Of a stretch of 64,000 nucleotides of DNA, positions 1 through 17,722 are shown piece by piece. A program made the translations under genes and the position numbers. Every line of letters begins with the position of its first letter. The first letter of the stretch is position 1. The stretch is from a virus (taxonomy: Duplodnaviria > Caudoviricetes). A model generated the notes under the pieces. It did not search any database. It saw only the letters and a list, made by a program, of their open reading frames with translations, and was not told the DNA's origin. Where the stretch lies: the IMG/VR virus record IMGVR_UViG_2907202186_000003, positions 74,081 to 138,080 of that record; one strand, written 5' to 3'.

Positions 1-33
1 TTCTCCTTTGTTTAAGTAAAATCTACATTTTAT

Positions 34-192
34 TCAGTCTTCGTCAGTTTCTTCAAATAATACTTTATACCCCTGCTCTGCGAACAAAGATAAAAGTTCT
101 AAAGCCTTATTCTTGTCATCTATACTCAATTTTACATTAAGAACTTCGAGTTGTGGATCGTCAGTAACTACAATTGTAAGTTTATAGAACAT
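34..192 (-). CDS. small hypothetical protein (not in ORF track)
   Basis: Hand translation MFYKLTIVVTDDPQLEVLNV...ETDED*, with a GAAGGGG RBS upstream. Confidence 0.55.
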   Translation of the reverse strand: MFYKLTIVVTDDPQLEVLNVKLSIDDKNKALELLSLFAEQGYKVLFEETDED

Positions 193-260
193 GGGAATGC
201 CCCTTCCATTTCATAGTAGTAATTATATAATAACACCAATCTTCTCAAAAGTAAGTCATT

Positions 261-620
261 CTAACCTGAATACTTATTCGCAGTAATTGGGTAATAAAAT
301 ATTTCTATTTCCTCACTAATAAACCCTCTGCGTTGTGCAGCTAAAAGCGTTTCATACATGTTCTTACGTCCAACTGGATTATCTGTATGCAAATATATCT
401 TATCGACTTGTAATCCGTATTCGCAAAAATATTTAACTAAATCATATCCATTTTGAAGCTCATGTCCGTTCTCATCCTCACCCAAGTCATGATCTAAGGT
501 CAGTATATGTACCCTTTGTGACTCAAGGATACTTATTGCCTCATGATAGGTTCGCGCTACTACAAAACCCTCTGGGCAATCACGTAGATCGTCTACATAT
601 AGGTTTATTTTCTGATCCAT
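261..620 (-). CDS. cyclic-phosphate processing receiver-domain-like protein
   Basis: Motifs LYVDDLR, LDHDLG, GYD and HTDNPVGR. Likely start MDQK at 620 after GGAAAGGAAG. Confidence 0.7.
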   Translation of the reverse strand: MDQKINLYVDDLRDCPEGFVVARTYHEAISILESQRVHILTLDHDLGEDENGHELQNGYDLVKYFCEYGLQVDKIYLHTDNPVGRKNMYETLLAAQRRGFISEEIEIFYYPITANKYSG

Positions 621-655
621 TTGTTCTTCCTTTCCCATAAAACTTGCATTTCATC

Positions 656-976
656 TTAAATGTCATTGATGGCCTGTTTTAAAAATGCAATCTTCAATAT
701 GCCTTTTTCCAAAGATGCAGCATAGTATCCTTTATTTTCGCTGGAGTACTGATAATGGATAATTTCGTCTGCCATCTCCTCGGTCATTTCACCTCTATAA
801 TATGGGATATCAACTAGCGAACCAATTGGAATATCGGAGCTTTTTTTGTTAATGTCAACTCGCTCCAAAATTGTTTTAACCGAGTCATCTAATTTAGACC
901 AGTCAGTGTCTACAATTCTCATTTCTAACCCCCTCTCTAATGATGAAACATGCCTTTTATGTCTTTTACTGCTCAT
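656..976 (-). CDS. hypothetical protein
   Basis: ORF whose stop lies next to the boundary motif at 637; the true start may be internal (MRIV). Confidence 0.6.
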   Translation of the reverse strand: MSSKRHKRHVSSLERGLEMRIVDTDWSKLDDSVKTILERVDINKKSSDIPIGSLVDIPYYRGEMTEEMADEIIHYQYSSENKGYYAASLEKGILKIAFLKQAINDI

Positions 977-1400
977 TGAAATACCACATTACATCAGATT
1001 GCTCTAATACTTGATACAATGCATTTAAATTAGACGACGTTTCTCTAACGTAAATCTCCAATCTGCTGATTTCGTCTCCTGTATATTTTATGATCCGTTT
1101 CACTTTCTCATCAATTTCATTCCCTAGAAAAGTGTATACATCTAACACATTATCAATGGAGTAAATTAATACCGTATATTGAACATCATTTAAAGGACGA
1201 AATGTAAACAAATTATCAGTAGGTTGTATTCTTTTGCAGTATTCACATACAACTTTATGCTTTTCGCCTTTGTCGTCAATAATTATTCCACCATTTTTGT
1301 CTGAGGTAGATAGCTCAACGATTGTTCCTTCTATTTGTTGTCCAACATAATCATATTTCACTCTATCACCAAGATATAACCCATACCAACCTCTAGTCAC
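966..1400 (-). CDS. hypothetical phage protein
   Basis: 144-aa ORF with AAGGAGTGG RBS. Confidence 0.7.
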   Translation of the reverse strand: MTRGWYGLYLGDRVKYDYVGQQIEGTIVELSTSDKNGGIIIDDKGEKHKVVCEYCKRIQPTDNLFTFRPLNDVQYTVLIYSIDNVLDVYTFLGNEIDEKVKRIIKYTGDEISRLEIYVRETSSNLNALYQVLEQSDVMWYFNEQ

Positions 1401-1446
1401 TCTATACCACTCCTTATTTTAGGATTCAAGTGAAATAGCCATTTGA

Positions 1447-1965
1447 TTAAGACTCCGCAGCAAGCAATCCAGCAACACGAGCCAGTTCCTCTTGACTGTG
1501 AACAGTGCCACCACTATTCATCTGTAAGTACCATTCAAGTACCTCTTTACGAGTCTGAAGGTTGTTAACATGAAAACTCAAACGAATCATCATTGGGATC
1601 TTGTCTTGAAATTCATTGTAGAAATGTCCAAATGCTTTAATTTGGTTTCTAATGAATTTCAAGCATGCTGTAAGGCGTTGCAGTCCATCGACACACACGA
1701 ACCACCCATCACCATTTCCCACAGTGTTCTGCCATTTAGTGTGATTGAAGTATATATCTAATCCTGAGACACCTTCACGCAACAAATGCTCGATATAAAG
1801 CTCTTGTTGTTGCTCAGTCCAGACCTGCCCTCTCTGAAAATCCGGTTCTAACTCTAATCCCATCTCTTCAATATAATCACCTATAGTGCTTTCAAGATAC
1901 CTTAGAGCTACATCAACAGAATAGTTATTGCACTGTATGTATGGTTTAATGCCCTGGAACTTCAT
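1447..1965 (-). CDS. stand-alone DUF262 (ParB/Srx-fold, GmrS-like) domain protein
   Basis: The PDFQRGQVW and VDGLQRLT motifs and the C-terminal MNSGGT are typical of DUF262. Confidence 0.8.
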   Translation of the reverse strand: MKFQGIKPYIQCNNYSVDVALRYLESTIGDYIEEMGLELEPDFQRGQVWTEQQQELYIEHLLREGVSGLDIYFNHTKWQNTVGNGDGWFVCVDGLQRLTACLKFIRNQIKAFGHFYNEFQDKIPMMIRLSFHVNNLQTRKEVLEWYLQMNSGGTVHSQEELARVAGLLAAES

Positions 1966-1985
1966 GTTTTAACCCCCTAAAACGA

Positions 1986-2186
1986 CTATCCATCTTGTTT
2001 ATCGATGATAAAGTAATCTAAATCCTCAAGAAACTCTTTAATTAAACGGATCTCAGCTTCTAAAATCAACATCGTAATGCTTTCATTAACTGATAAATCT
2101 TCTGTTCCCTTCTTTTTATTGTGGTAGGGTTTCAAAAGATTTTCTTTTCGTTCAAGTGATCTTTTATACTGTTCAATTAACTCCAT
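1986..2186 (-). CDS. hypothetical protein
   Basis: ORF with AAGGAGG RBS. Confidence 0.7.
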   Translation of the reverse strand: MELIEQYKRSLERKENLLKPYHNKKKGTEDLSVNESITMLILEAEIRLIKEFLEDLDYFIIDKQDG

Positions 2187-2228
2187 ATAATAATAGCCTC
2201 CTTAAATATAGGTAAAACAGTCATTTGA

Positions 2229-2588
2229 TCAAGAATCGATCCTATGTTTCTTGAAGTATCCATGAATCACTTCTTCGCTTGGATTATCAATACGTTCATC
2301 AGTACTCCATCTAGACCAACCATCAGCGCAATAATATGCGATATCTAAAAGGCTTTCAGGTTCTTTACCATAGTGTTGTTTGAAATCCTCTTTCAGTTCA
2401 CTCATTCCTTCTTCTGGATCTGAGCCAAAATATTCAGTAAAGCGAATAACTTTTCTTGATAGCAGCTTTTCTCCTTCTTTGAAGGTGTCTAAGAGTATTA
2501 CTTCAGCGTTCTCCTGATATTTTGAGTAATCCTCATTTATCATTTTTACATATCCTACTGTCTCTCGATCCCTATACTCTTTCCACAT
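2229..2588 (-). CDS. hypothetical protein
   Basis: ORF with AGGAG RBS; stop overlaps the boundary motif at 2212-2229. Confidence 0.7.
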   Translation of the reverse strand: MWKEYRDRETVGYVKMINEDYSKYQENAEVILLDTFKEGEKLLSRKVIRFTEYFGSDPEEGMSELKEDFKQHYGKEPESLLDIAYYCADGWSRWSTDERIDNPSEEVIHGYFKKHRIDS

Positions 2589-2607
2589 GATTTCATCTCC
2601 TATTTAC

Positions 2608-2817
2608 TCATAATTCTTCTAGTACAACTTTATATTTTTTCCCAGTAACATTGTTTGTGAAATGTGACAGTTCACTATAAATAAAGTTATTTCTTATATA
2701 GTCCTTATCTTTCTCTACTTCGGTTGCAAGAACCTGCATTAACTCATCTGTATTTTCAACAACATAAATACCCCAAACGTCGATGTGTTTTTCATGATAA
2801 GCATAAAATAATTTCAT
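2608..2817 (-). CDS. hypothetical protein
   Basis: Likely start MKLFYAY after the GAAGGAG RBS, which follows the motif at 2839. Confidence 0.6.
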   Translation of the reverse strand: MKLFYAYHEKHIDVWGIYVVENTDELMQVLATEVEKDKDYIRNNFIYSELSHFTNNVTGKKYKVVLEEL

Positions 2818-2869
2818 ATTTAGTATGCTCTCCTTCACATAAAATAGTTATTTGACCATGAATTATTTA

Positions 2870-3169
2870 TTAGAAATCTTTTCCTGCTTGTTTAAAATAA
2901 TTATCTAACTGCCGTTGTGCCTCTAGATGAGAAATAGGCGCCTTATTGATTCTTTCTAATTCAGTCTCAAGTTTCTTAACTTCATCGTCCGTGTTGTCTG
3001 GCTGTACTCCATTTTCACGCTGTGCTTTATTTAAAATTATCTGTTCTCTCAACCAAACCAATCTATTCAAGCAAAATCCATACCTATTTAGTTTTTCCTC
3101 AGTATCTCTTTTTTCAATCCATTCGTTACCGTTCCACTTATAGCCCTTTACGATCTTATCTTTCTTCAT
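2870..3169 (-). CDS. hypothetical protein
   Basis: ORF with GAGGTG RBS. Confidence 0.6.
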   Translation of the reverse strand: MKKDKIVKGYKWNGNEWIEKRDTEEKLNRYGFCLNRLVWLREQIILNKAQRENGVQPDNTDDEVKKLETELERINKAPISHLEAQRQLDNYFKQAGKDF

Positions 3170-3191
3170 GACCTTAACACCTCGTAGTTTT

Positions 3192-4184
3192 TTAAATAGC
3201 TTTTAGAACAATGTTTCCTGCATGATCAATAAATCCAGTGTCATCTTTTTTACTTGAAAATCTAACCAAGGCTAAACCTTCTTTGAATGAATCAATGTCT
3301 TCATACTGTGGCTCAACAATCCAATTACCAGACTTGTCAAGAACACCAAACGATTCTAAATACCTCTTCTTACCGTTTTTAACTGTGGCAAGCCCTTCAC
3401 TAAACCAAAAATTCTCGCTTGCAATATCTTTTACTATAGAATGCTCATACTTATCCATCAACCCAATAACTCTTCTATCTTGTGATCTCGTATTATTCAA
3501 AGGGCAATAAGAATACAAACCTTCTCCGGCATATCCCAAACTACTATAATCCTCTTTGAAAACTCTTTCTCCATTGCTATTGATTGCATAATATTTTGAT
3601 TGATCGAAATCATACACCACTGCTATACCATTATTAAAACCACTCGACACAGGATGATACTGATTTTTAATAACAACGGAACTGTTTATATTTATGAATC
3701 CAACCTTATAGTCTTGTTCAAATCTAATCAATCCGTCTTGAGGATGGCTTAAAGAATTAAAACTCGGCAACACAACCCATTCACCTTTTTTGTTTATCAT
3801 TCCATATCTATCATTTTTCTTCACAATCGAATATCCATTTCTAAAAGGACTGGCGGCTTCATATTTAGGCTCAATTATAAATTCACCACAATCATCTATA
3901 AAACCCGCTTTTCCGTCAATAACTACATTAACTAACCCTTCGGAGAATCCCCATGAAGCATATATCCCTTTATCAAATTTGCAGTCAATAATAATATCCC
4001 CATCTACGTTAATAAACCCCCATTTTTTAGAGGTATTTTGGAATGGGGCGTATCCCTCAGAGAAGTCTTCAGCGTAAGCAAACTTTGACTCAATTGCGAC
4101 TTCTCCATATTTATTAATGTATCCGTATTTTTTTTCATCTTGAATCAATGCCAAACCATTTGAAAAACCAGATTTATACTTCAC
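3192..4184 (-). CDS. WG-repeat (KWG-type) protein
   Basis: Repeated FSEGLA/F..G...V..GK.GFI...G..II units. Confidence 0.85.
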   Translation of the reverse strand: MKYKSGFSNGLALIQDEKKYGYINKYGEVAIESKFAYAEDFSEGYAPFQNTSKKWGFINVDGDIIIDCKFDKGIYASWGFSEGLVNVVIDGKAGFIDDCGEFIIEPKYEAASPFRNGYSIVKKNDRYGMINKKGEWVVLPSFNSLSHPQDGLIRFEQDYKVGFININSSVVIKNQYHPVSSGFNNGIAVVYDFDQSKYYAINSNGERVFKEDYSSLGYAGEGLYSYCPLNNTRSQDRRVIGLMDKYEHSIVKDIASENFWFSEGLATVKNGKKRYLESFGVLDKSGNWIVEPQYEDIDSFKEGLALVRFSSKKDDTGFIDHAGNIVLKAI

Positions 4185-4257
4185 ATTAATTCCTCCATAT
4201 CAAGATTGCTATGTATTTAGATTTCGCTAACCCCATGAAATAAACCTTTCACACACT

Positions 4258-4509
4258 CTAGTCCCTTGGATAGTTAACTTCCATTATGTCCATAAATGGC
4301 ACCTTAGTGATAACACCATCTTTCTTGATATGCACCTTTCCCGTCCGAGAGTCCATTTGATCGATTTGCCCCCTAACAGACTCTTCCCAACCCCACACGG
4401 TTAATACAATTTCTGATTCCTCTTGGTAGGCTTCGGTGAGTTGATTTCCTAACTCCTCAAGTACAAACTCATCTCTTGTTGGTCTCTTTGCTACCTTAGA
4501 TTTTGCCAT
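4258..4509 (-). CDS. YolD-like protein
   Basis: The pattern KRPTRDEFVLEELGNQLTEAY...LTVWG...G.ID.MD matches YolD-like SH3-fold proteins. Start taken at MAKSK after the AGGAGG RBS. Confidence 0.65.
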   Translation of the reverse strand: MAKSKVAKRPTRDEFVLEELGNQLTEAYQEESEIVLTVWGWEESVRGQIDQMDSRTGKVHIKKDGVITKVPFMDIMEVNYPRD

Positions 4510-4593
4510 CATTAATGCCCTCCTAGCTGTCGAATTCAGTACGCAAGAGTTGAAATGGCGACCTAAACGTTTCTGTTTGATCGCCAAGAAAAT

Positions 4594-4953
4594 TTAATTA
4601 TTATTCAATCTTTCTGTGATTTCTTTTATCTTTGAACGAGCAACATTGAGCTGTTCGCCATCTTTAAAAATAACCATTCCGTTAGCCTCATCAACATATT
4701 TCACTTGTTCAAGATTAATCATAAGATCTCTATCGGCCTGTAGAAACCCTTTTTCAGCGGAATAATACTCTGCCAAATCTTGAAACGTAGCAACCTGACT
4801 ATATCTGGCTCCGTTTGTGGTTGTATATACGGGTACTTTTTGACCCTTAATTATTTTTATTGAAACATGACTCACATCTTCAAGTTTGAAATCTTCAATC
4901 GATCCTGTATCATGATTATATCCGACCAATTCATTTGTTGTCATCGATGTCAC
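4594..4953 (-). CDS. stand-alone LytTR-domain protein
   Basis: FLQADRDLMINLEQV...VIFKDGEQLNVARSK resembles the LytTR FxRxHRSxxVN...lpVSR pattern. Confidence 0.7.
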   Translation of the reverse strand: MTSMTTNELVGYNHDTGSIEDFKLEDVSHVSIKIIKGQKVPVYTTTNGARYSQVATFQDLAEYYSAEKGFLQADRDLMINLEQVKYVDEANGMVIFKDGEQLNVARSKIKEITERLNNN

Positions 4954-5145
4954 CTCAAAGGTTATTATTGTATAATTTTACAATACAAAGTTACTTCAGA
5001 ACAGTACATTGTTTATCTATCAGTTATATAAGCATTGTATCACATAAATTTATATTTGTATATTTATTTTATTAATAATTTCAATTCAATCCAGTTGTGT
5101 CCCGATGTGCGAACAAACAATTTGCCTTTCTCAACTTTACCCCCT

Positions 5146-5325
5146 CTATACATATCTATATACGCTCCCAGTTCTACGGCTGTAAACCTCTACATAAGCT
5201 TTAAACTCGCTAGTGAGCTTGTACACTCTATCCATGATAATAAAGCTCATAGTCTCCTTGCAGCGTCCCAGTTGTGCAATGCTTTCTACCACTTGATTAT
5301 TTACCACAATATCATATGTATCCAT
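5146..5325 (-). CDS. small hypothetical protein
   Basis: Start MDTYDIVV after GGAGG. Confidence 0.6.
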   Translation of the reverse strand: MDTYDIVVNNQVVESIAQLGRCKETMSFIIMDRVYKLTSEFKAYVEVYSRRTGSVYRYV

Positions 5326-5377
5326 TATAAATACCTCCAATTAATATTTTTATTTTATTTTATTTGAAAGACTTATT

Positions 5378-5566
5378 TTATGCAGATTCATGTTTCGTCA
5401 TTTGGACACCATGGTAACTAACTTCTACAATATCAATTATCTCAGTTTCTTTATCATTAAACCAGAAATCATCTATCAGTTTTTTCGCATGTATTTCGTT
5501 GTTAGCTGTAACGATATGATACTTGGTATCCCCTAAAGCTTTAGTTTCAGCATAATAAATTCTCAT
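5378..5566 (-). CDS. small hypothetical protein
   Basis: ORF bounded by motifs at 5364 and 5581; GAGGAG RBS. Confidence 0.65.
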   Translation of the reverse strand: MRIYYAETKALGDTKYHIVTANNEIHAKKLIDDFWFNDKETEIIDIVEVSYHGVQMTKHESA

Positions 5567-5597
5567 TTTTTCAACTCCTCATGAAATACTTATTGTG

Positions 5598-5741
5598 TTA
5601 CCAGAATCTAACCTTATCATCCTCAATCGAGTAACCTTCAAGAATGAAGTTTATTCCTTCATTGGTATATGTAGCATCTTTATTTTCATGACCATGAGAA
5701 ATTAATTCTTCAAGTATCTCCTTTAACTCTATTAATTTCAT
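5598..5741 (-). CDS. small hypothetical protein (47 aa, not in ORF track)
   Basis: MKLIELKEILEELISHGHENKDATY...RFW*; AAGGAG RBS; bounded by motifs at 5581 and 5759. Confidence 0.6.
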   Translation of the reverse strand: MKLIELKEILEELISHGHENKDATYTNEGINFILEGYSIEDDKVRFW

Positions 5742-5872
5742 TGTCTTTTCAACTCCTTATAAATTACTTCTTTCATCCTATAACCCTGCCTAAAGTCCCA
5801 ATAAAATCTTCCAATATAACCAATTATGCTATATAGTTTATTTATCAAAATTAATAAGACTGGGGTAGACAT

Positions 5873-6373
5873 TTGATGAAAGCCATATTAATTATTGTTG
5901 TATTATTCATAGTTTGTGCACTGATACTCATTAAAATGAGGTCAAAAGGTCAAGAAAAAATCAACGATTATTCTAATAATCAATCAAAAGACCAAACCAG
6001 GAGTTTCTCCGGAGCTCTAAATGATGTAAGAAACGGAACATCTGAATTTGCTCCAGAAGCTATTAGGGGAATTGAGAAAATTAAGACTGTGCTTATGACT
6101 GATGAAGAAATTATTCACTCAGGTTATGGAAAAGATGGCTTTAAAAACGTAGTTTATGCTGTGACAAACAAACGATTTATAGCCTGTTATGTTGGAGTTA
6201 CTTCCGAACAACTCACTTCCATTAATTATAATAAGATTACAAATGTAGATATTAAAAACAAACTTAATTTATCATATGTTGTAATTCAAACAAGCGAGAA
6301 AGCAGTAGAGATTCTTGTCCAGAACAAACCAAGATCAGTTGAGTTTTTCAATTCAATAAATAGTTATACTTAA
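5873..6373 (+). CDS. membrane-anchored bacterial PH-domain protein
   Basis: N-terminal TM helix; AVTNKRFI and INYNKITNV are bPH-like motifs. Confidence 0.7.
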   Translation: MMKAILIIVVLFIVCALILIKMRSKGQEKINDYSNNQSKDQTRSFSGALNDVRNGTSEFAPEAIRGIEKIKTVLMTDEEIIHSGYGKDGFKNVVYAVTNKRFIACYVGVTSEQLTSINYNKITNVDIKNKLNLSYVVIQTSEKAVEILVQNKPRSVEFFNSINSYT

Positions 6374-6427
6374 TAATATTTTGGGTGAGGTCTTATTGAT
6401 CTCACCTTTCTTTATAAAAGAATCCTT

Positions 6428-6712
6428 TTATACAGACTTTCTCAATTGTCTTTGGCAAAACTGCATCGCCTCGAACAATGTTTCTGTGTCTGCTGTAACA
6501 TTCTGATAACCAAAGACTTTTTCATTCACATTGTTACTTGGTAAATCACTGTATACAAATAAAAAACCCCTTACAATCTTCCCCTTTCCTTCACCACAAT
6601 TGTCATCAGAAACAACCATGATATTATATTTACCAACAGGAATGATTAAACTTGCTTCAGCACCATCAGCATTACTTGCAATGATTCGGCCACCCAGTTT
6701 GATATTTTCCAT
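6428..6712 (-). CDS. hypothetical protein
   Basis: GAGGAG RBS; bounded by motifs at 6414 and 6728. Confidence 0.65.
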   Translation of the reverse strand: MENIKLGGRIIASNADGAEASLIIPVGKYNIMVVSDDNCGEGKGKIVRGFLFVYSDLPSNNVNEKVFGYQNVTADTETLFEAMQFCQRQLRKSV

Positions 6713-6785
6713 TGAACTAATCTCCTCATAAAATATTCATATTTAAACTTCAATTATCATAGCATCTTCGTTCTGCGACACTTTA

Positions 6786-7085
6786 CTATTTAAGCGAACA
6801 TCTCTTATGCTCCATGCTATAAATAACAATTTGATCGCCTGTCATTGACCTTGATCTATATCGAATGCCTAAACATTTAACTTTTCTTCCATCCTGAGTT
6901 TGACTCAATTTGTTGTTTTGATACTCTTGTTTTGTAAGGTTTTCATTGCATTTAGGGCAAAGCAATTCAAACGCTTCTTCAACATGCTCTGCCATGTAGT
7001 CATCTTCTAATTGTTCCTCATGGGTTCTTAGACTAAATTCTGTAAAGTTTGCTTTCGCATACAGAATGTCATTCAAAATCACCAC
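6786..7085 (-). CDS. hypothetical protein (CxxC)
   Basis: AGGAGG RBS; CPKC. Confidence 0.55.
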   Translation of the reverse strand: MVILNDILYAKANFTEFSLRTHEEQLEDDYMAEHVEEAFELLCPKCNENLTKQEYQNNKLSQTQDGRKVKCLGIRYRSRSMTGDQIVIYSMEHKRCSLK

Positions 7086-7143
7086 CTCCTGTTTTGCGGT
7101 ATTTTGTCTACTGTACTTAATAAATCCTCATAAAATAATCTTT

Positions 7144-7356
7144 TTATTCAAACTTACTATCTCTAATTAAGACATAAATAAAATCCCTTACTTCTGTATC
7201 ATCCCATCCCCACTCATCTGCCAGATCTTTTATCCTATCTGGAATCAAGTTAATAATGGCAGTTATTTGTGCTTCATCGGGAGCAATATTGTTAATATCA
7301 ATATAGCTGCTTCGAATTTGATCTTTTAATTCCCAAGTTCCATCCATATTATTCAA
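7144..7356 (-). CDS. hypothetical protein
   Basis: ORF bounded by motifs at 7130 and 7370. Confidence 0.6.
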   Translation of the reverse strand: MNNMDGTWELKDQIRSSYIDINNIAPDEAQITAIINLIPDRIKDLADEWGWDDTEVRDFIYVLIRDSKFE

Positions 7357-7387
7357 TCCTCATTTCTACGTAAAATATTCATTTTAA

Positions 7388-7706: not shown

Positions 7707-7742
7707 ATCCTCACCTCCTCTCAGTGGTTATGGATGAAAGGA

Positions 7743-7976
7743 TTATTTAATTACAAATTCTATTTCCTTATATTCAAACTTATCACCATGTCTTGAATCA
7801 TAGAACTTTTCCCAAGCTAGCAGATCCTCTTCTTTTTCTGTTTCACTAAATACCATTGATTCAATTAAGTTGTCAGTATATTCACCGACTTTTCCAATCC
7901 ATACATTTCCTTCTACACTCTGGATGCTGCACCACTTAATAAATTTATCTCCAACTTTGATTACATATCTGCTCAC
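7743..7976 (-). CDS. hypothetical protein
   Basis: Bounded by motifs at 7734 and 7992; GGAGTGA RBS. Confidence 0.65.
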   Translation of the reverse strand: MSRYVIKVGDKFIKWCSIQSVEGNVWIGKVGEYTDNLIESMVFSETEKEEDLLAWEKFYDSRHGDKFEYKEIEFVIK

Positions 7977-8008
7977 TATGTATCACTCCCCATGAAAGGA
8001 TCATTTCA

Positions 8009-8377
8009 TCAATACTTCAATGCTTTTCCCTTGCCTATGGTCAATTTCCATGCAAGTAAACATCCTTCTTCAAGTTCTTGTTTGTCAGTAAAACACATAT
8101 CACACTGCCCGTTTCTAAAAATCTCGCACTGTCTCTCAACAATGTTATGAAGAGTTTTTCTTTTGATAATTCTAGCAGCAGTTCCCTTAATATATCGTTC
8201 CTCGGTGTAAACTGTTATGTATTCTGGATCATTTTGCAGCTCTAAAGTACTTCTTTGTGGTTTAACTGTTTTTTCAAACCGTGCGGCGAACATGTAAACA
8301 CGATTATTAAAGTCATCATTTACGTACACAGCCCTCATTGGAGCAGTTACATTTGTATCTTCCTCAATCTGATACAC
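8009..8377 (-). CDS. hypothetical protein (5' end possibly frameshifted)
   Basis: ORF present; the RBS-supported ATG at 8426 is out of frame by one base. Confidence 0.55.
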   Translation of the reverse strand: MYQIEEDTNVTAPMRAVYVNDDFNNRVYMFAARFEKTVKPQRSTLELQNDPEYITVYTEERYIKGTAARIIKRKTLHNIVERQCEIFRNGQCDMCFTDKQELEEGCLLAWKLTIGKGKALKY

Positions 8378-9023: not shown

Positions 9024-9060
9024 AAAAAATCACTCCTCATTAAAATATAGTTTCATCAAC

Positions 9061-10460: not shown

Positions 10461-10472
10461 AAAAATGTAAGT

Positions 10473-10551: not shown

Positions 10552-10577
10552 TACCATCCCGATGATGCCCTCTTAAT

Positions 10578-10979
10578 TTAAAATAGTTGCGCAATCACGA
10601 GAGCGTCCTTTATTACAATCTCTCCGTGATCAGGATCGTCATGGCGTCCCAGGCGCTTACTGGCGATTATGTAACAATGATCGGTACCAAAAATTTGGTC
10701 GCGCGCCTTTTCAGCTGCGAAGGAAGAATATTCGTAAGTCTGGCTGATTGACATGTCCCAGGCGGATGTACCGTTAAGAAGTTCCATCTCCTCGTATTCC
10801 TCTGTCCCGTATTTAGGGAACTCCCTTTCATCTTCGCGATCAGCGTTATGGCGGCTGTATTCGCATTCCTCACCGATCGCGCGTTCCTTGTTTTCAAAAC
10901 GAAGTCCGATAAAATAGAATTCATTCTCATTGGCGACGTAGATTTCTTTAGCCTCCGCGTACATTTCTGCGACTGTCAT
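10578..10979 (-). CDS. acidic hypothetical protein, possible ADP-ribosyltransferase-like fold (candidate anti-defence)
   Basis: Start MTVAEM after GAAGGAGG; IGLR / GTSAW / DHGEIVI recall the R-S-E ART motifs. Confidence 0.55.
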   Translation of the reverse strand: MTVAEMYAEAKEIYVANENEFYFIGLRFENKERAIGEECEYSRHNADREDEREFPKYGTEEYEEMELLNGTSAWDMSISQTYEYSSFAAEKARDQIFGTDHCYIIASKRLGRHDDPDHGEIVIKDALVIAQLF

Positions 10980-11028
10980 CTTAATTCCTCCTTCATATAT
11001 TTTTCCGTGATTCCTTGTTGTTGGTTTT

Positions 11029-11061
11029 ATTATATCACACAAGGTTGTGCTACACAACCTT
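11029..11061 (-). promoter_or_regulatory. sigma-A promoter with palindromic operator
   Basis: Minus strand TTGTGT-17 bp-TATAAT with extended TG; perfect inverted repeat AAGGTTGTG-CTA-CACAACCTT at 11041-11061. Confidence 0.7.
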
Positions 11062-11192
11062 TTCTTGAAAATATTATAATTTCCATACACAAATAACTCC
11101 AAGCAACAAAACTAACTCGCTTGGAGTTTGATAAAATTAATCTTTCATTAAGAAAGACAACCCCGAAAATAAGATTGTCTTTGCAATATAAA

Positions 11193-11378
11193 TTATTCAG
11201 TTTCAGTCCAGTACATGATTTTCACATGATTTGGAGTGGTTTTTTCTAACCTCACAATCTGTTCTTTTACATAATCATGTACTTCTCTCTCTTCTCCATT
11301 TGGAACATCGTAAATGCTTGCTCTTTTGTTGTGCTGTACTCTGTCAACAAATAGAATGTAATCAACTTCGAGTGTCAT
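11193..11378 (-). CDS. small hypothetical protein
   Basis: GAGGGG RBS. Confidence 0.55.
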   Translation of the reverse strand: MTLEVDYILFVDRVQHNKRASIYDVPNGEEREVHDYVKEQIVRLEKTTPNHVKIMYWTETE

Positions 11379-11478
11379 GATTGCCAGCCCCTCTATATGT
11401 AATTATTTTCCTGTTATATCTTTACGCTTGTCGGAGTCAAAGTTTACTAGCCGAGAGATTGTTATCAAAAAAATAAAG

Positions 11479-11973
11479 TTAGGAGTTACTTTTTAGTTTT
11501 ACCTTATATTTTTCAGCTAGTTCTTTTACTTTATCCTGATATTCTCGCATCATCTTCCTTGCCTCTGAAAGCTTCTCATTCGCTTCAGTAATAGTCTTTA
11601 TATCCTGTTCTTCTAGAGCATAAGCGATTGTTGTTAAAGCTGAATTCTGACGATTTAATCCGTCTATATAAATATTATGTACTTCTCGTAACTCTTTTGA
11701 TTCAATTTTAACACTTTCAACTTTTCCAGTGAACTCGTTATAACCAGGTATTACTTTGTCCACCAAAACGTTGTAGGTTGTTTCGTCATCCGTAAAATTT
11801 GCTCCTGTTACACTTTCATAGGTATTAACTAACTCCTGTTCTTCAGTAAACAGAGGAACCATTTGTTCGTTAATATAAGACAGTAATTCTTCTGTTACCG
11901 GGTCAGTTTTGCTACACCCCATTAGAACATTAAAGAGCAACATAGTGCTGATAAGAATTATTAACTTTTTCAA
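11479..11973 (-). CDS. lipoprotein, helical
   Basis: Signal peptide with lipobox LMGC. Confidence 0.75.
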   Translation of the reverse strand: MKKLIILISTMLLFNVLMGCSKTDPVTEELLSYINEQMVPLFTEEQELVNTYESVTGANFTDDETTYNVLVDKVIPGYNEFTGKVESVKIESKELREVHNIYIDGLNRQNSALTTIAYALEEQDIKTITEANEKLSEARKMMREYQDKVKELAEKYKVKLKSNS

Positions 11974-12109
11974 AAGAAAACCTCCTAGTCTTAAATACCT
12001 TTTATCTTGTAGATTATAATGGAAAATAGTTCAAAAGCAATAGGGTATTTGGAACTAATTACATCTAATTCATTTCACAACTCTTCTTATTTTTCATGAA
12101 ATAACTGTT

Positions 12110-12295
12110 TTATCCAACTTTATCTTCTATTACCTGACAGACTGTGTGTGTAAGTACTAAAAATGTTAATGTAAATAATAAAAACGGAAAACTATTGTGC
12201 CATCCTTCTTGAAATACACACTGTGTATCTAATACTCCAAAAACAAAACAAGCGATACCAAATAATACAAGTCTACATTTAGATAATTTCTCCAT
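12110..12295 (-). CDS. small membrane protein
   Basis: Start MEKLSK after AAGGAG; two hydrophobic segments. Confidence 0.5.
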   Translation of the reverse strand: MEKLSKCRLVLFGIACFVFGVLDTQCVFQEGWHNSFPFLLFTLTFLVLTHTVCQVIEDKVG

Positions 12296-12355
12296 TGTCC
12301 ATATCTCCTTTTTGTAAAATTCTGCTTTTAACAGCTTCCTAATTAATAACTCCAA

Positions 12356-12658
12356 CTAATTTTGATCAAAAATCATGCAGTACTCACAATCATCAAAAAT
12401 GGCCTTTTCAATTTCTTTATTGGTTGCATCCTCCCAAACAGTTACCTTCCCGTTATATGTACCAATTGGCCTGACACTAATTGTATATTCGACTTCCTTG
12501 ATTTTTCTTTGTTCGCTGTACGCTTTCTCTGCTGCTATAAGATTCTCAATAGCTTCATCAAACTCAGCTCTAGTTCGATTATTGTTTGTTGTTCCTGCAA
12601 TACATGCCTTTTGATTAACAATGGATTGCAATTTCTCAATATCTTTTCTTGTGATCAT
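12356..12658 (-). CDS. hypothetical protein
   Basis: GAGGTGA RBS following the motif at 12677. Confidence 0.65.
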   Translation of the reverse strand: MITRKDIEKLQSIVNQKACIAGTTNNNRTRAEFDEAIENLIAAEKAYSEQRKIKEVEYTISVRPIGTYNGKVTVWEDATNKEIEKAIFDDCEYCMIFDQN

Positions 12659-12690
12659 TTCTCTTTCTCACCTCTTATAAAATACTGTTT

Positions 12691-12978
12691 TTATTGGAAG
12701 TACATTTCCTCGATTTTACGTTTAAATCGCGCTAAATTATTTTTTGCTTGTTGGTATGATCCATTCAAACCCTTCAACTCCAACGAATCAATTTGAGCAC
12801 CAAATTGATTAAACACCGTTACCGATAAATCAAAATCTCCAAAAAACTTATGATTTTCATTAAATATATTTTCTTTCCCTACTATTTCTGCCTGAGCTTT
12901 ATAGTTGTTATTGCTTAAATACTCCAGCGAACAATTTTTTATATCAAGTTTCTCAGTTGCCCATTCCATCTTTACCAC
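12691..12978 (-). CDS. hypothetical protein
   Basis: Bounded by motifs at 12677 and 12984. Confidence 0.65.
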   Translation of the reverse strand: MVKMEWATEKLDIKNCSLEYLSNNNYKAQAEIVGKENIFNENHKFFGDFDLSVTVFNQFGAQIDSLELKGLNGSYQQAKNNLARFKRKIEEMYFQ

Positions 12979-12997
12979 TCCTTATAAAATCGTTGTT

Positions 12998-13279
12998 TCA
13001 CTTAGATTCCTTAAATACCTGGTCATAATTTCCTTCAACATCTACTAAATGCAAATATGAATAAATCTGTGCAACAATATCTTTAATCTCTTTTCTTTGT
13101 CGTAGAACAAAGTTACGGTACAATTCATCTTTTAATAGTTCTTCTCCCACCAGACCGGAGAGCATCTCAATTTTACTTGTGATATCTGCAATCTCATTTC
13201 CCATTGCCTTCACTTTATTTCTTGCATATCCTGTAAAGTGGATCTCTTTTTCAATGCTTTCCAATTGATCTCGATTCAT
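12998..13279 (-). CDS. hypothetical protein
   Basis: Bounded by motifs at 12984 and 13309. Confidence 0.65.
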   Translation of the reverse strand: MNRDQLESIEKEIHFTGYARNKVKAMGNEIADITSKIEMLSGLVGEELLKDELYRNFVLRQRKEIKDIVAQIYSYLHLVDVEGNYDQVFKESK

Positions 13280-13682
13280 TTAGTTAACTCCTTATATTAT
13301 GTATTTTTATTAAATAACCGTTTTAATAATGATAAGCCCCCATAAACCGATGCACAGTGAATACAAGATTGCATTTTCAAACGTTAGATGCTTCATAATT
13401 CTCATGTGATTTCCTCCACCTAATCTATAAAGCGTTGCTGTTCTTTATCATGTGAAAGTAACCTTTCATACAGAGAATTCATATCGTTCACATATAAATC
13501 GAGTAAAAAATTTAAATAGATAAACTCCTCAATGGATGCAATTTGCTGGTCTATTGCATCCATGATCTCATCAGGTAAAAGCGCAGGAAGCAATATACTG
13601 GAGGTTTCCTGCGCTTACCTGATAATTAACGTATGTACATTTTATATCGCTCTCTCTATGCATTGTTGTGGTCTCATAAACT

Positions 13683-13925
13683 CTACCAAAAACATGATCC
13701 AGTATTATTATATGTTACCTGATGAATTCCTTTTGTTTTAAGGAAAGCCTCCAATTTACTATAAAATTCATTTGAGGGATTAAGAACGAAACTGCTAACA
13801 AACGCATTATCAGTTATGCCTATATCAACTTTAAATCCGTTTCGTCTTAGCTTAATTATTGATCCCATGTTTTTAAGCGTTTGATTAAATTCATTTATAT
13901 ATTCTTCAGTAATTTCACTCATCAA
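13683..13925 (-). CDS. hypothetical protein
   Basis: AAGGAGTGG RBS. Confidence 0.6.
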   Translation of the reverse strand: MMSEITEEYINEFNQTLKNMGSIIKLRRNGFKVDIGITDNAFVSSFVLNPSNEFYSKLEAFLKTKGIHQVTYNNTGSCFW

Positions 13926-14010
13926 ACTTCCACTCCTTTTTAATATGAATCGATTTTCAGGATACCATCTCTTAAAGTTGTAGTAAAGACGAATAGGAGA
14001 ATTATATCCC

Positions 14011-14511
14011 CTATTCTAATCCGCACTTATCACAAAATTCATCCCATGCCTTATCATATTTCTTACTTCCCGATCTACCTCCAAACTCTTTAGACCACAT
14101 GTCTGCTACAATTTGAAATTGTCTATCAGTTAGGTCTTCGATTTCTTTCATGAATAACTCTTGTGCTATGCTGTAGCAAAATCCCTTTTCCTGTATTCTT
14201 ATTTCGATACCACTTGGTGGATAATATCGCTTATTGTCTTTATCCATCAGATAATCGATAAGCCATCCGTTTTTCTCATAATAGTACTCGCGCGTTTTCT
14301 GTTCTTCTGTTTCTCTTGCCTCAATTTGTGCGTGTCTGTCTGCCTTAAACTTTATGTATTCGTCAACATTTCTTTTGTTTCCCATTTCCCAAACTTTGAT
14401 GCCTGACACAATCTGCACACATTCGCTACCATATGGCTTACCTTGATACTCGAAAATGTTCTTGATACCTTGACCACATCTCGTACAATTAGAAATGATT
14501 CCTGTTTCCAT
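14011..14511 (-). CDS. hypothetical protein with N-terminal Zn-finger-like motif
   Basis: CTRCG...YGSECV; GGAGG RBS. Confidence 0.7.
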   Translation of the reverse strand: METGIISNCTRCGQGIKNIFEYQGKPYGSECVQIVSGIKVWEMGNKRNVDEYIKFKADRHAQIEARETEEQKTREYYYEKNGWLIDYLMDKDNKRYYPPSGIEIRIQEKGFCYSIAQELFMKEIEDLTDRQFQIVADMWSKEFGGRSGSKKYDKAWDEFCDKCGLE

Positions 14512-14638
14512 TTTTGACCGCCTCCGTGTTTTAACTTATAACTAATTATAACACGGGTTATGCATTTACACAATAATATGTTTATATTTATTTTATTGTT
14601 TTTACTTAAAATAAGCATTTCATCGTGTTTTATAAACC

Positions 14639-14854
14639 TTATGTATCACTGTTGGAATTCTCTATTAGAATTTCACAAGCACTATCAAATACAATTTCTT
14701 TCGACAACTGATATCGCTCTTTATTCTTCTCATAATGCACTACAAACATAGGATAAAGTTGCAATTCACTACAACCTTCTTTCATGAGTCTCATCTTTAA
14801 TACTTTTAGATGAGTTCTTAAATGCTCAACAGTTTTTATCTCCAAGTTAACCAC
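14639..14854 (-). CDS. hypothetical protein
   Basis: ORF downstream-bounded by the motif at 14606. Confidence 0.5.
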   Translation of the reverse strand: MVNLEIKTVEHLRTHLKVLKMRLMKEGCSELQLYPMFVVHYEKNKERYQLSKEIVFDSACEILIENSNSDT

Positions 14855-14871
14855 ACCTTATTACATTTATT

Positions 14872-15093
14872 TTATTTACTGCTATAACCAGAAGAACGAA
14901 TTATGCTTTCAATCGAATTTATATTGTTTCTCTCTAAAATAATGTTTCTTACCCAATTCGGCCTATTTAATTTATTTTTATAAAAGGCTTTTTGGAATAC
15001 CTTTATGTTTCCTTCGCCCGTAAATATGGCAATTTTACAAGGTGTATTTTGCATTGCTTTTATTGTTCCTTCATAAATCTTAAATAATTTCAT
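14872..15093 (-). CDS. hypothetical protein
   Basis: AGGAG RBS. Confidence 0.6.
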   Translation of the reverse strand: MKLFKIYEGTIKAMQNTPCKIAIFTGEGNIKVFQKAFYKNKLNRPNWVRNIILERNNINSIESIIRSSGYSSK

Positions 15094-15117
15094 TTTTATT
15101 TCTCCTATAATTAATAA

Positions 15118-15264
15118 CTACCATTCTCTACCGTTTCTGACCGCTTCTAAATTTTCTTTTGCGTGGTTAATGTATTCTTCTTTTCGAGAATCATTTCCAT
15201 AAGCACTAACTACCTTTTCCAATTGTTTTTCATAATACTTAATTAGCTCTTCTCTTGTTTTCAT
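15118..15264 (-). CDS. small hypothetical protein (48 aa, not in ORF track)
   Basis: MKTREELIKYYEKQLEKVV...GREW*; GAGGGGG RBS. Confidence 0.55.
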   Translation of the reverse strand: MKTREELIKYYEKQLEKVVSAYGNDSRKEEYINHAKENLEAVRNGREW

Positions 15265-15322
15265 TTTTTCATTCCCCCTCTAATTTGTTGGTGAAACAAG
15301 CGTTACTTAGATACTTTTTACT

Positions 15323-15562
15323 CTAGATCCCTTCAACCTCAATTACTCTATCAATCATTTCTTCCAGGTCCAAGACAGACTTTTCATTAACTTTAATTTG
15401 ATTTTTATATACTTCAATTGTGCATTTTTCTGTAAGTATTGTTGCTGTAGGTGCAATTACAAATGTTGTACTGTCTCCTGCTACTTCGTGACCATAACCA
15501 TATGTATTCAATTTCTCGCTGATTGAGTTGACCAGTTTTTCAATGCTCTTCATCGGTATCAC
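15323..15562 (-). CDS. hypothetical protein
   Basis: ORF with RBS. Confidence 0.6.
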   Translation of the reverse strand: MIPMKSIEKLVNSISEKLNTYGYGHEVAGDSTTFVIAPTATILTEKCTIEVYKNQIKVNEKSVLDLEEMIDRVIEVEGI

Positions 15563-15765
15563 TTCCTTATAATTTGTATAATTACTTTATTAAATGTTAT
15601 ATCTAAGTGGATAGATTTTTTCCTTCCTGTGGCAATATACATAAATAGTATTATTGTGAAATCCTATTGTTTCCATTTTTGTCCCAGCGATATGAAAAAT
15701 GAAACCTTTCTCCGTTATGTTTTTCATCTTTTGTCCCCTCCAGTTTAGTTGAAACAAGAATTTTA

Positions 15766-16077
15766 TCAATTGTCGATCATTTGCAGATTATTTCTTGTAA
15801 TAAAAGCTTTAACTTCTGAAACACCCCAAGCTTCTTTTCCCCAATCTTTTATATTTTCACTTTCAAAATTCTCTACTCTATTAAATTCAACCGAAACTCC
15901 TTCTTCAATGAGTTTATCAAGGCACGAAGAATGTCTGTATGTCTCCATTTGATAAAATTCTTTATGCTCATCTTCGATAAGTAGACCTTTTTTTTCTATA
16001 AAGCAGAGTTTGATTTTTTTCTGCTCTAATTCTGATAATACATCTTTAAAATCCACAATAATCTTTTTATTTTTCAT
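15766..16077 (-). CDS. hypothetical protein
   Basis: Bounded by motifs at 15749 and 16098; GGAGG RBS. Confidence 0.65.
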   Translation of the reverse strand: MKNKKIIVDFKDVLSELEQKKIKLCFIEKKGLLIEDEHKEFYQMETYRHSSCLDKLIEEGVSVEFNRVENFESENIKDWGKEAWGVSEVKAFITRNNLQMIDN

Positions 16078-16138
16078 TTCTTATTCCTCCGTGTTCTATG
16101 AAATCACTCTTTCACTTACTGTTTTAGAAGGACACATA

Positions 16139-16618
16139 CTATTTTATATGTGTCCACAACTTACCCGAGTTCTTACTTTGACATTTCTTGCAAACATGTG
16201 CACCATCAGGTGGTAAATCTAATGGATCACCTTGAAGCAAATTAGGTCTATCAAGATTGTAACTTTGACAAGATGGATATCTATTATTCTCGATTTCAAA
16301 TCCAATTTTATGCCACGTTCCTGTTTTTGATTGCATCCACTTTTTAAGTCCAGCAGATTCCTCAATTGCTTTACTTGTATTTTTATTTTCTTTTTTTGCT
16401 TCTATATTTTGACGTTTGAGTAAATCTTGTTTCGCTCTGTTCAGATCACGCTGCAGTATGCCAATTTCAACTGCTGCTTTTCTTTCTTCAGAACCTGCAG
16501 GAAATGTTGCCCAGCACTCTAAAGGGTCAGCTCCTAAATTTTTTAGAGTTTCAACTTGTACTAAGATTTTCGATTCATATCTTTCAACCTTTTTAACGGC
16601 TGCCTCAAGTTTGTTCAC
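16139..16618 (-). CDS. hypothetical protein (coiled coil + C-terminal H/C motif)
   Basis: GGAGGG RBS; WH...C...CKKC. Confidence 0.6.
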   Translation of the reverse strand: MNKLEAAVKKVERYESKILVQVETLKNLGADPLECWATFPAGSEERKAAVEIGILQRDLNRAKQDLLKRQNIEAKKENKNTSKAIEESAGLKKWMQSKTGTWHKIGFEIENNRYPSCQSYNLDRPNLLQGDPLDLPPDGAHVCKKCQSKNSGKLWTHIK

Positions 16619-16738
16619 TTTGTCAACCCTCCATAATCGGATAAAATGAGTATTTCTTTTAACGATTTAGTTATATTATTATTATATTTACTTTATAATA
16701 AAATGTCAAGCCTTTGTTTTCTTTTTTTAAAGCGAAAT

Positions 16739-17206
16739 TCAAGTAAAATATTGATAATCAAATTCAATATTTAGCTCAATTTGCTCTATTGTCGGCTCCC
16801 AATATATTAAATTACCTTGATCTTTATAATAAGCTACGTTGTTTTTTATAAAGAATGTCTTATTCGAATAAAATCCACAATTTCTCATATCCTCCAATAA
16901 ATATTTTAAATCGTTACAGTCATCATTGAACAATAAACCATTTATATAGTTATAGTATTTAGCAAGATTATAAATTAATATCTCGTCTAAGCAGAATTCT
17001 AGATTTGGATGAAGTAAAACCTTATTCAAATTTATAAAAATTGTATCCTCTTCAAAAATCACATAACTATATCTATATTTCATTTTATTAGGAATGAATA
17101 TTTTTCCTTTATATTCAAGACTACATATCTTCTTTGCGAGAAATTTAGTCTTTCTTTCTAACATTGGAATGGAATTATCATCTTTCGAGAGTAATGTTTG
17201 AATCAA
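16739..17206 (-). CDS. hypothetical protein, possibly degenerate SprT-like
   Basis: LDEILIYNLAKYYNY.NG..F.D resembles the SprT HExxH region with the His residues lost. Confidence 0.45.
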   Translation of the reverse strand: MIQTLLSKDDNSIPMLERKTKFLAKKICSLEYKGKIFIPNKMKYRYSYVIFEEDTIFINLNKVLLHPNLEFCLDEILIYNLAKYYNYINGLLFNDDCNDLKYLLEDMRNCGFYSNKTFFIKNNVAYYKDQGNLIYWEPTIEQIELNIEFDYQYFT

Positions 17207-17371
17207 AATATTCTCTCCTTTTATTAAAGATTTTACTTAGTGTTCAAATATACAATGTTACTAATTGTACCATTGTATATTTGTCTTGCCACCTAACCGC
17301 TCAATGTCAGCGGTTAACGCTCTAGGCTTAAGGCTCAATCCCGATATGTCGGGAACCGCCTAGACGGTTTA

Positions 17372-17644
17372 TTATACATTCTGTTTTAGTAACAGATAGT
17401 TATAACTTGCTAATTCATTAAGGTCAATTCCCTTTGATTCAATTAAATTTTTGATCTGTTCTTTAAAGGTATTCAGTCCAGTGATTCGGTCTTCTTTATT
17501 TGCAATTTCTTCGGTGTTTTGGATTTCTTGTATCGCAAAGCTAATATCGATCATAAATCTATATAATTCTACTGGAGTACCTTTTAATTTAACCTCTAAT
17601 TCAATATTAGTTTCAAAATCATTTTTCATTGTAATTACCTCCAT
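17372..17644 (-). CDS. hypothetical protein
   Basis: GGAGG RBS before the internal MKNDF. Confidence 0.6.
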   Translation of the reverse strand: MEVITMKNDFETNIELEVKLKGTPVELYRFMIDISFAIQEIQNTEEIANKEDRITGLNTFKEQIKNLIESKGIDLNELASYNYLLLKQNV

Positions 17645-17722
17645 TTTTTAGTCATATCATACCACTAATATGCAACATCAGTAATAATGAAATGAGGATT
17701 TCAATCTGATTTAATTCAAGTA

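Follow-up and report, generated by a model that had tools for sequence, protein, structure and literature searches.

The 64,000-nucleotide stretch analyzed here (the window; positions 74,081 to 138,080 of the Caudoviricetes record IMGVR_UViG_2907202186_000003 in IMG/VR) corresponds to G000:C11:238803-302802 and is part of a 139-kb island at C11:~164,000-303,500, which has ~35% GC in a host of ~50% GC. Judged by its genes, this island is an SPβ-like prophage. It has the size of that group (~130-140 kb), carries a YonO RNA polymerase, YopQ-MrpR, YorG/YorF, YomM and YonN, and is organized into opposed early and late arms, with genes on the minus strand up to ~265.5 kb of C11 and on the plus strand beyond. 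The YopQ and MrpR homologues lie 4-5 kb upstream of the window, and homologues of YopP and of structural proteins are also encoded. Here we describe a short palindrome that is repeated at the gene junctions of the early arm, and we consider what it may do.

The window contains 18 exact copies of the pattern RTRAAA-N6-TTTYAY, compared with 0.58 ± 0.73 in dinucleotide shuffles (largest shuffle value, 3), and 13 of the 18 are located at 16-16115. This bears out the enrichment over shuffled sequence anticipated in the original prediction, which described an array of about 30 copies. That figure was of the right order but somewhat high, because we count 21 junction sites between 16 and 17704 when up to one mismatch is allowed and 25 under a looser definition. 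The array continues for ~74 kb upstream of the window and fills the entire early arm of the prophage with 81-94 copies, depending on the looseness of the site definition. Exact copies number 70 in the whole genome; 54 are on contig C11, 49 of them within C11:164,839-254,900, and the host chromosome has one strict copy in 3 Mb. With up to one mismatch, there are 81 copies in the 101.5 kb of the early arm, nine in the 38 kb of the late arm and ~1-2 per 100 kb in the host. The late or core arm had been said to hold only three copies, and the scarcity is real even though the count is five exact palindromes, or nine at the relaxed threshold.

The two arms of the palindrome are held at a strict distance. 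We found 37 copies with a spacing of exactly six nucleotides and 0-2 at each other spacing from 0 to 12, and controls with everted or reversed arms gave 0-2 copies and one copy, respectively. Read on the gene (minus) strand, the order at a junction is stop codon, site, n-AAGAAAGGAG and then a start codon 14-25 nt past the site, with the consensus (T)YTnn-ATRAAAK-N4-MTTTYAT-n-AAGAAAGGAG. The stop codon of the upstream gene is within or adjoins the left edge of the palindrome, and almost no sites are inside coding sequences, so the predicted placement between a minus-strand stop codon and the next ribosome-binding site (RBS) holds. Arm symmetry reaches positions 7/12, and more weakly an outer TYT/ARA; an extended 28-bp symmetry, seen in this phage and SPβ and not in the prophage of genome G292, is only suggestive as a real feature. 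The arms vary independently of one another, with AC, AT, GT and GC at positions 3/16 in 12, 11, 14 and 12 copies, and covariation was absent at positions 3/16, 1/18 and 7/12. This argues that there is no selection on a hairpin, and fits a two-fold symmetric protein that reads duplex DNA. Host boxes for CodY, cre, Rex, LexA, ComK, Noc and dif do not appear to fit the palindrome in spacing or arms, and the host chromosome has hardly any copies.

We compared the six bases between the arms (the spacer, or center) in this phage and in the prophages of genomes G279 and G089, the latter from a host of a different genus. Within each of the three there is no identical pair of spacers; moreover, none is palindromic or the reverse complement of another. 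Between genomes the same spacers recur. This phage and G089 share 37 identical spacers in direct orientation, compared with 3.0 ± 1.7 in a letter-shuffled control, with no reverse-complement matches, and 36 of these follow the same order along the 100-kb arm. The prophage of G279 shares 31 spacers with this phage, 29 of which are colinear, and all 36 spacers common to G279 and G089 are in the same order. In total, 48 of 94 early-arm sites (17 of 25 in the window) have their spacer in G279 or G089, compared with none of the 11 late-arm sites.

The DNA around these shared spacers has turned over. At shared-spacer anchors, the constant arm positions are ~0.95 identical and wobble positions 1, 3, 16 and 18 only 0.5-0.7, while the flanks are 0.28-0.39 identical, which is the random level for unrelated AT-rich DNA. 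We found no homologous gene pairs beside shared anchors, either downstream (0/17) or upstream (0/19), and 17 of 22 segments between consecutive anchors had no significant tblastx match. Segment lengths between the same anchors also differ, for example 160 compared with 1239 bp, and alignments at the 15749 and 7992 sites show an identical site amid unrelated flanks in 3-4 species. The sites bound slots of one to three or more small genes that are unrelated between phages, much as the original prediction had described, and its proposal that they have the character of recombination sites gains from the finding that relatives keep the sites, with partner-matched centers, around content that has been replaced.

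Tyrosine recombinases such as Cre, Flp, lambda Int and XerCD require partners with the same overlap and a center of fixed length, while the arms may be degenerate. The palindromes have inverted arms around a center found only at N6, which is the core-site architecture (arms around a 6-8-bp spacer) recognized in the original prediction. As indirect evidence for partner matching, the centers of orthologous sites in G089 and G279 match at six of six positions (37 and 31 pairs, compared with ~3 by chance) while the arm wobble is free. Degenerate arms, an exactly matched 6-bp center and a fixed length together form the signature of a tyrosine-recombinase core site. Moreover, a regulator reading a consensus cannot give rise to centers that vary from one site to the next but are kept at the matching site of other phages; such a constraint calls for matching with a partner, and the comparison points to the same site in another genome as the obvious partner.

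Our preferred interpretation, which we hold with moderate confidence, is that an Xer-like tyrosine recombinase encoded by the phage uses the palindromes for site-specific recombination, as core sites whose overlaps are heterospecific. A recombinase dimer would bind the inverted arms of 6-7 bp (ATRAAAK / MTTTYAT, plus the weak outer TYT/ARA), and the 6-bp center would be the overlap region for strand exchange; we infer recombinase binding, cutting and exchange at the overlap from these comparisons. Because each junction has its own overlap, a site would be productive only with the same-numbered site of a related genome, in a co-infecting phage or a resident prophage, and not with its neighbors. 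A single crossover would swap everything on one side, and two crossovers would swap one slot. Gene order, the stop-site-RBS linker and reading frames would be kept and intragenomic deletions avoided; because all centers within a genome differ, neighbors should not recombine and circular excision is not expected. The early arm would thus be a series of addressed slots, whose contents turn over as the addresses persist, and the arms would be re-assorted at each exchange to leave randomized wobble bases. In-register crossover would explain together the slot turnover at fixed addresses, the randomized arm wobble and the preserved linker. We extend this only tentatively to the proposal that SPβ-like phages, SPβ included, might carry a natural multiplexed cassette-exchange system of dozens of orthogonal Xer-type sites, in which the 6-bp overlaps would be a coordinate system and YomM or YopP would swap slots in register, across host genera and with protection from self-deletion.

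Table 1. Junction sites, candidate recombinase genes and the YonO-like marker gene in the window (window coordinates; spacer, the six bases between the arms; exact or mismatch, agreement with the palindrome pattern).
Feature	Position	Strand	Remarks
Junction site, spacer TCTACA	16..33		exact; same spacer in G089 at 4143797, colinear
Junction site, spacer CTTGCA, upstream of gene 261-638	637..654		exact; spacer in G279, travels with the gene in G013 and G360
Junction site, spacer CATGCC	943..960		exact; spacer kept in G279 and G089
Junction site, spacer TAAACC	4235..4252		exact; identical 18-mer in G089
Junction site, spacer GACTTA	5364..5381		1 mismatch; spacer in G279
Junction site, spacer TACTTC	5759..5776		1 mismatch; kept in G279 and G089
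Junction site, spacer GAATCC	6414..6431		exact; kept in G279
Junction site, spacer TAATCT	7130..7147		exact; identical 18-mer in G089, also in G279 and G351
Weaker junction site, spacer TATTCA	7370..7387		spacer at colinear positions in G089 and G351
Junction site, spacer GGATTA	7734..7751		1 mismatch; 5/6 match to spacer of neighbor 7992
Junction site, spacer GGATCA	7992..8009		exact; identical site, unrelated flanks in G089 and G351
Junction site, spacer ATATAG	9039..9056		1 mismatch
Junction site, spacer TTAATC	11131..11148		exact; kept in G089
Junction site, spacer TAACTG	12096..12113		exact; kept in G089
Junction site, spacer TACTGT	12677..12694		exact; kept in G279
Junction site, spacer TCGTTG	12984..13001		exact; kept in G279 and G089
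Junction site, spacer GTAACC	13452..13469		exact
Junction site, spacer TAAGCA, just upstream of sigma-A promoter repeat	14606..14623		1 mismatch
Junction site, spacer CAAGAA	15749..15766		1 mismatch; identical in G089, G279 and G311, flank shared by G311 only
Junction site, spacer TCACTC	16098..16115		exact; kept in G089; 91%-identical gene block of G311 ends here
Junction site, spacer TGAGTA	16641..16658		1 mismatch; kept in G279 and G089
Junction site, spacer TGAGGA	17687..17704		1 mismatch; 5/6 match to neighbor 16641
YopP-like Xer-type tyrosine recombinase, candidate enzyme	25633..26673	-	PF00589, SAM-like N-terminal domain
YonO-like single-chain RNA polymerase, SPβ-like marker, late-arm start	27149..29719	+	PF05183; 65% identical homologue in G292
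YomM-like tyrosine-recombinase-family protein, candidate enzyme	45290..46306	+	PF00589; 61% identical to SPβ YomM

The two recombinases named in the original prediction, encoded from 25633 and 45290, both fall in PF00589 with catalytic-type residues conserved across phages. Alignment of the YopP-like family shows conserved R (SFR), K, HxxR (HSxR; K in SPβ), H and Y, and in the YomM family R, K, HxxK (HxFK), H (HH) and Y are invariant in four phages. We found YopP-like homologues in G292, G110, G279 and G089, and a YomM-like gene beside the arrays of the same genomes, so both genes are present in all four site-rich prophages searched. In this phage, 8 and 28 kb separate them from the array end. 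Two of the few late-arm palindromes, at 45253-45270 and 46312-46329, flank the yomM-like gene, and their spacers are not conserved in G279/G089; we set aside the hint of autoregulation because the gene is not flanked in G292. The G089 homologue of YomM (G089:C1:4189490-4190491) is 82% identical and contains one in-frame TAA, and may be a pseudogene or reflect a sequencing error. A conserved YoqY-like protein was considered as a universal partner of the sites and rejected, because it was not found in G279 or G089.

The same element is present in other members of the group. A scan of 301 genomes of the host family found a few with an excess of the pattern, and those tested (G292, G110, G279 and G089) hold SPβ-like prophages with MrpR-, YomM- and YopP-like genes and are enriched at N6 for the core TRAAA-N6-TTTYA. 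With the YonO of this phage as the query, no YonO homologue was found in G279 or G089 despite their close YomM, YopP and MrpR homologues; either it was missed by the first-look filter or another polymerase is used. SPβ itself has 14 strict copies at N6, compared with at most three at other spacings, and ~55 copies with one mismatch, mostly ATAAAA-N6-TTTTAW, which occupy the same stop-site-RBS position in its yop-yot arm. A limited search of the SPβ literature turned up no description of the palindrome.

Breakpoints between related genomes offer a further view of the sites. No close relative of the early arm in the window was found in the phage collection, and 116 genomes of the host genus gave single genes only; the prophage of G292, in which 39 of 244 genes are shared, was too divergent for breakpoints to be mapped. 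We therefore used SPβ, phi3T, Goe13 and Goe14, which are 91-99% identical where aligned. In this group, 14-34% of breakpoints are within 10 bp of a site, compared with 3% of random positions, and breakpoints occur at 37 of 51 junctions with a site and 46 of 146 without. At base level the break is at either outer edge of the site, and the entire site stays with one block. For each pair of these phages, the spacer is identical at 13-20 of ~21 sites, and homology beside these sites extends to both flanks, to one or to none. Only three of the 51 variable segments are bounded by sites on both sides. The excess at sites, set against the many breakpoints elsewhere and the rarity of double-ended segments, indicates that the palindromes are preferred boundaries and not cassette delimiters in the integron sense. 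The expectation that indel breakpoints in relatives would fall inside the motif was thus only partly realized: breakpoints are enriched at sites, but they lie at the site edges and most are elsewhere.

Genes shared singly with other genomes of the genus give a similar picture. Homology stops at gene boundaries, sometimes including the upstream site and sometimes not, and a site accompanies the upstream gene and the RBS of the downstream gene equally often. Gene 261-638 (minus strand, 125 amino acids) is shared more widely than anything else in the early arm, with copies of 72-80% DNA identity in at least seven other genomes; G360, G013, G046, G342 and G332 have matches, and G279 has two. For G013 and G360, the homology takes in the upstream site at 637-654 and its spacer. 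Gene 1447-1965 (minus strand) has a match of 84% DNA identity in G351:C11, in a different slot that adjoins the address TAATCT (at 7130 here). Its upstream site in G351 is absent from this phage, and the homology excludes that site. Genes are thus able to move from one slot to another, and exchange in register does not by itself account for this.

Several other observations weigh against recombination at these sites. In the SPβ group, 102 of 153 breakpoints are away from site junctions and neither end carries a site in 25 of the 51 variable segments, and in laboratory phi3Ts-SPβ hybrids 15 of 16 junctions were reported simply at homologous regions (bioRxiv 10.1101/2020.05.06.055103). Addresses shared between this phage and the more distant G292, G110 and SPβ did not reach significance. 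The arms are short, with strong conservation over 6-7 bp where Cre, Flp or Xer sites usually have 11-13 bp, and the constant distance from site to RBS would equally suit an expression signal. Of the candidate enzymes, YomM has an invariant Lys at the position expected for the second catalytic Arg (Arg II), and an HMMER alignment of the YopP-like protein to XerD misses the HxxR that the family alignment shows. In addition, gene calls were made with a home-made caller.

The junction breakpoints could also arise if the sites were conserved intergenic linkers for general or phage homologous recombination of the Sak4/YorG annealing type, with no site-specific recombinase. The stop-palindrome-RBS unit would then offer a short identity for in-register exchange, as proposed for the promoter-early stem-loops (PeSLs) of T4-type phages, and the palindrome would have some other role. 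We regard this as rather unlikely. It fits the clustering of breaks at the edges of intact sites, the Sak4-like (AAA_24) and YorF-like proteins that the phage encodes, the recombination of the laboratory hybrids at homologous regions (bioRxiv 10.1101/2020.05.06.055103) and the PeSL precedent (PMC2839356). However, because the wobble positions are randomized, the unbroken identity between orthologous sites is only ~12 bp (positions 4-15), very short for homologous recombination, and the dimer-type palindrome, strict 6-bp spacing and partner matching confined to the center are left unexplained.

Alternatively, the sites may be purely regulatory operators at which a dimeric DNA-binding protein, possibly a catalytically silent recombinase-fold protein like MrpR, silences or times the early genes in the manner of stoperators, without recombination. 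A palindromic dimer-type site with no hairpin covariation, its density in the early arm and sparseness in the late arm, and its constant position just upstream of the RBS all suit an operator, and there are precedents in MrpR, a recombinase-fold repressor (PMC10516654), and in L5-type stoperators (PMC9283540). We nevertheless judge this unlikely, because an operator cannot explain site-specific centers that are conserved and colinear while flanks and arm wobble have turned over; a plain repressor site, the alternative raised in the original prediction, is disfavored on the same ground. The specific candidate of an MrpR operator was rejected. MrpR has a tyrosine-recombinase fold, and chromatin affinity purification sequencing (ChAP-seq) in SPβ gave ten peaks, all at promoters with the SPβ repeated element, SPBRE (PMC10516654), which has a different sequence. 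We located the SPBRE core as AATATGTATA(TA) within TAGACA-N17-TATAAT promoters, and the palindrome does not match the 15-bp SPBRE. In addition to its MrpR homologue, this phage has a separate promoter-linked repeat of its own.

It is very improbable that the palindrome is an RNA signal in polycistronic early transcripts (processing, translational operator or terminator) or a promoter for the phage polymerase: although all 5' untranslated junctions contain it, at a constant offset from the Shine-Dalgarno sequence, and a YonO-type RNA polymerase is encoded by the phage itself, an A-C mismatch would fall in the 6-bp A/U stem in 12 of 49 copies, a G+C stem and T-run are lacking, the core is two-fold symmetric, unlike promoters, and YonO of SPβ transcribes the late operon from one start site (PMC5467207) while the sites are rare in the late arm. 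The missing arm covariation contradicts the RNA-processing signal that the original prediction had listed and led us to reject hairpin or RNA elements in general, and a sigma-A or phage-sigma promoter was rejected because the site logo has no -35/-10 consensus and no sigma-factor gene (no sigma r2 domain) was found in the prophage.

Among natural systems, the closest to the proposed phage recombination sites are the plasmid dif (pdif) modules of Acinetobacter, which are acted on by XerC/XerD. These have many short sites per replicon, each with inverted arms and a 6-bp center (~28 bp in total), and the sites bound accessory-gene modules that are shuffled between related replicons (PMC13141974, PMC6449649, PMC9947245). 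The phage arms are near-palindromic whereas pdif has distinct XerC and XerD arms, and the phage element is a 139-kb prophage with two Xer-like genes of its own and ~80-90 sites, at almost every junction, between stop codon and RBS. The phage centers, moreover, form a colinear address series common to phages of different host genera; we know of no equivalent address map for pdif. The closest logic is that of engineered recombinase-mediated cassette exchange (RMCE) with heterospecific lox/FRT sites. Such sites have common arms and differing overlaps, and since only identical overlaps recombine, exchange is in register with no deletion between unlike sites. RMCE is, however, a laboratory design with 2-4 site variants and lox/FRT arms of 13 bp, while the phage has a natural array of dozens of variants with arms of 6-7 bp and an overlap of 6 bp. 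By virtue of its many orthogonal sites, cross-genus colinearity and phage setting, we rate the palindrome array as a putative novel variant of site-specific gene-module exchange.

Other repeats are less similar. As in an integron, small and for the most part unrelated genes are arrayed with recombination-type repeats between them, and a tyrosine recombinase is encoded; the original prediction had accordingly suggested an integron-like system. We do not retain this comparison. The phage has no attI/Pc platform, its recombinase genes do not head the ~90-kb array, and the array holds its own sigma-A promoter repeats. Whereas attC sites are 57-141 bp, fold as single strands and lie 3' of the open reading frame, the phage sites are 18-28-bp duplex palindromes without covariation that lie 5' of the gene with its RBS, all with different centers, and in SPβ relatives few variable segments are double-ended. 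The pattern fits in-register crossover between homologous addresses, by the logic of dif modules or RMCE, and not capture at one site. PeSLs are likewise short conserved intergenic elements in hyperplastic regions of small open reading frames, at which indels and replacements start and end (PMC2839356, PMC4122927). A PeSL, however, is a sigma-70 promoter with a terminator stem-loop and recombines by homology; the phage palindrome has neither promoter consensus nor stable stem, which is why we do not class it as a PeSL, and it has a partner-specific 6-bp center. SPBRE/MrpR and the L5-type stoperators share with the palindromes the repetition of protein-binding elements across a temperate phage genome. 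SPBRE differs in being promoter-embedded (...ACAAATACAAATAATATGTATATAAT), with about 10 copies, and stoperators in being asymmetric 13-14-mers that are oriented with transcription and bind a monomeric repressor, while the phage core is symmetric; neither has a site-specific conserved center.

Spacers of neighboring sites resemble one another. In this phage they agree at 2.32 of 6 positions, compared with 1.71 ± 0.11 after shuffling, and the likeness is confined to the direct orientation and to lag 1 and is absent from the flanks. The z-scores are 5.8 or 3.4 in this phage, depending on the site definition, 3.8 in G279 and 2.8 in G089; the effect was not replicated in G110 or SPβ and was ambiguous in G292. 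Tandem gene duplication was rejected as the source because there are no adjacent paralogous genes. Similar neighboring spacers without adjacent paralogues suggest that new sites and addresses arise by duplication of a site upon DNA insertion, followed by divergence. The search of IMG/VR with one 16-mer address returned >114 matches, most of which are expected by chance in a database of that size.

Mosaicism with preserved gene order has so far been explained largely by rare illegitimate events followed by selection. If the sites are addressed as proposed, this family of large temperate phages would possess a dedicated means of exchanging genes in an orderly way. A function would be assigned to one or both of two conserved, uncharacterized recombinase-like SPβ proteins, and genome engineering would gain from nature a collection of orthogonal recombination sites. 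The proposal lends itself to direct testing in Bacillus subtilis, since the element is also carried by SPβ, phi3T and the Goe phages.

The promoter repeat of this phage is a second element of the early arm. In it, AAAATAAATATA precedes a hexamer resembling a -35 box (gacata or tacata), after which comes an extended -10, tgNtataat; roughly 10-20 copies are present. Five are on the minus strand of the window, at 5059-5110, 9288-9340, 14583-14640, 18061-18110 and 18716-18770, and about 10 more are upstream in C11. The AAAATAAATATA repeat looks like a conserved UP-element with a sigma-A early promoter, and it is likely the counterpart of the SPBRE/MrpR operator of SPβ.

Other features of the prophage are of separate interest. 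The 109-amino-acid gene at 4258-4587 (minus strand) matches a chromosomal gene in nearly all genomes of the genus with 66-81% DNA identity and the copy on C1 of the same genome with 86% identity, and appears to have been captured from the host; it is distinct from the YonN-like HU homologue at 29848-30171. At 10470-10508, a single stretch of ~36 nt has a 92-97% match to the CRISPR-like array repeats of G316, G374 and G379, which are other species of the host genus. A toxin-antitoxin-like pair at 18952-19383 and 19421-19702 (both minus strand) encodes a zinc-ribbon and HTH_3 protein (MqsA/YokU-like) and a DUF4258 protein, and is kept in G292 at 57% and 48%. Just upstream of the window, C11:237538-238687 (L011:14538-15687) contains a MazF/PemK-like toxin gene and a divergent Myb/MADF-like regulator, and a small gene for an XRE-type helix-turn-helix protein is at C11:237255-237422. 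Finally, C11:174,000-177,600 holds about 12 tightly overlapping small genes with a GC content of 0.42 and no junction sites, and looks like an operon imported from another kind of element.

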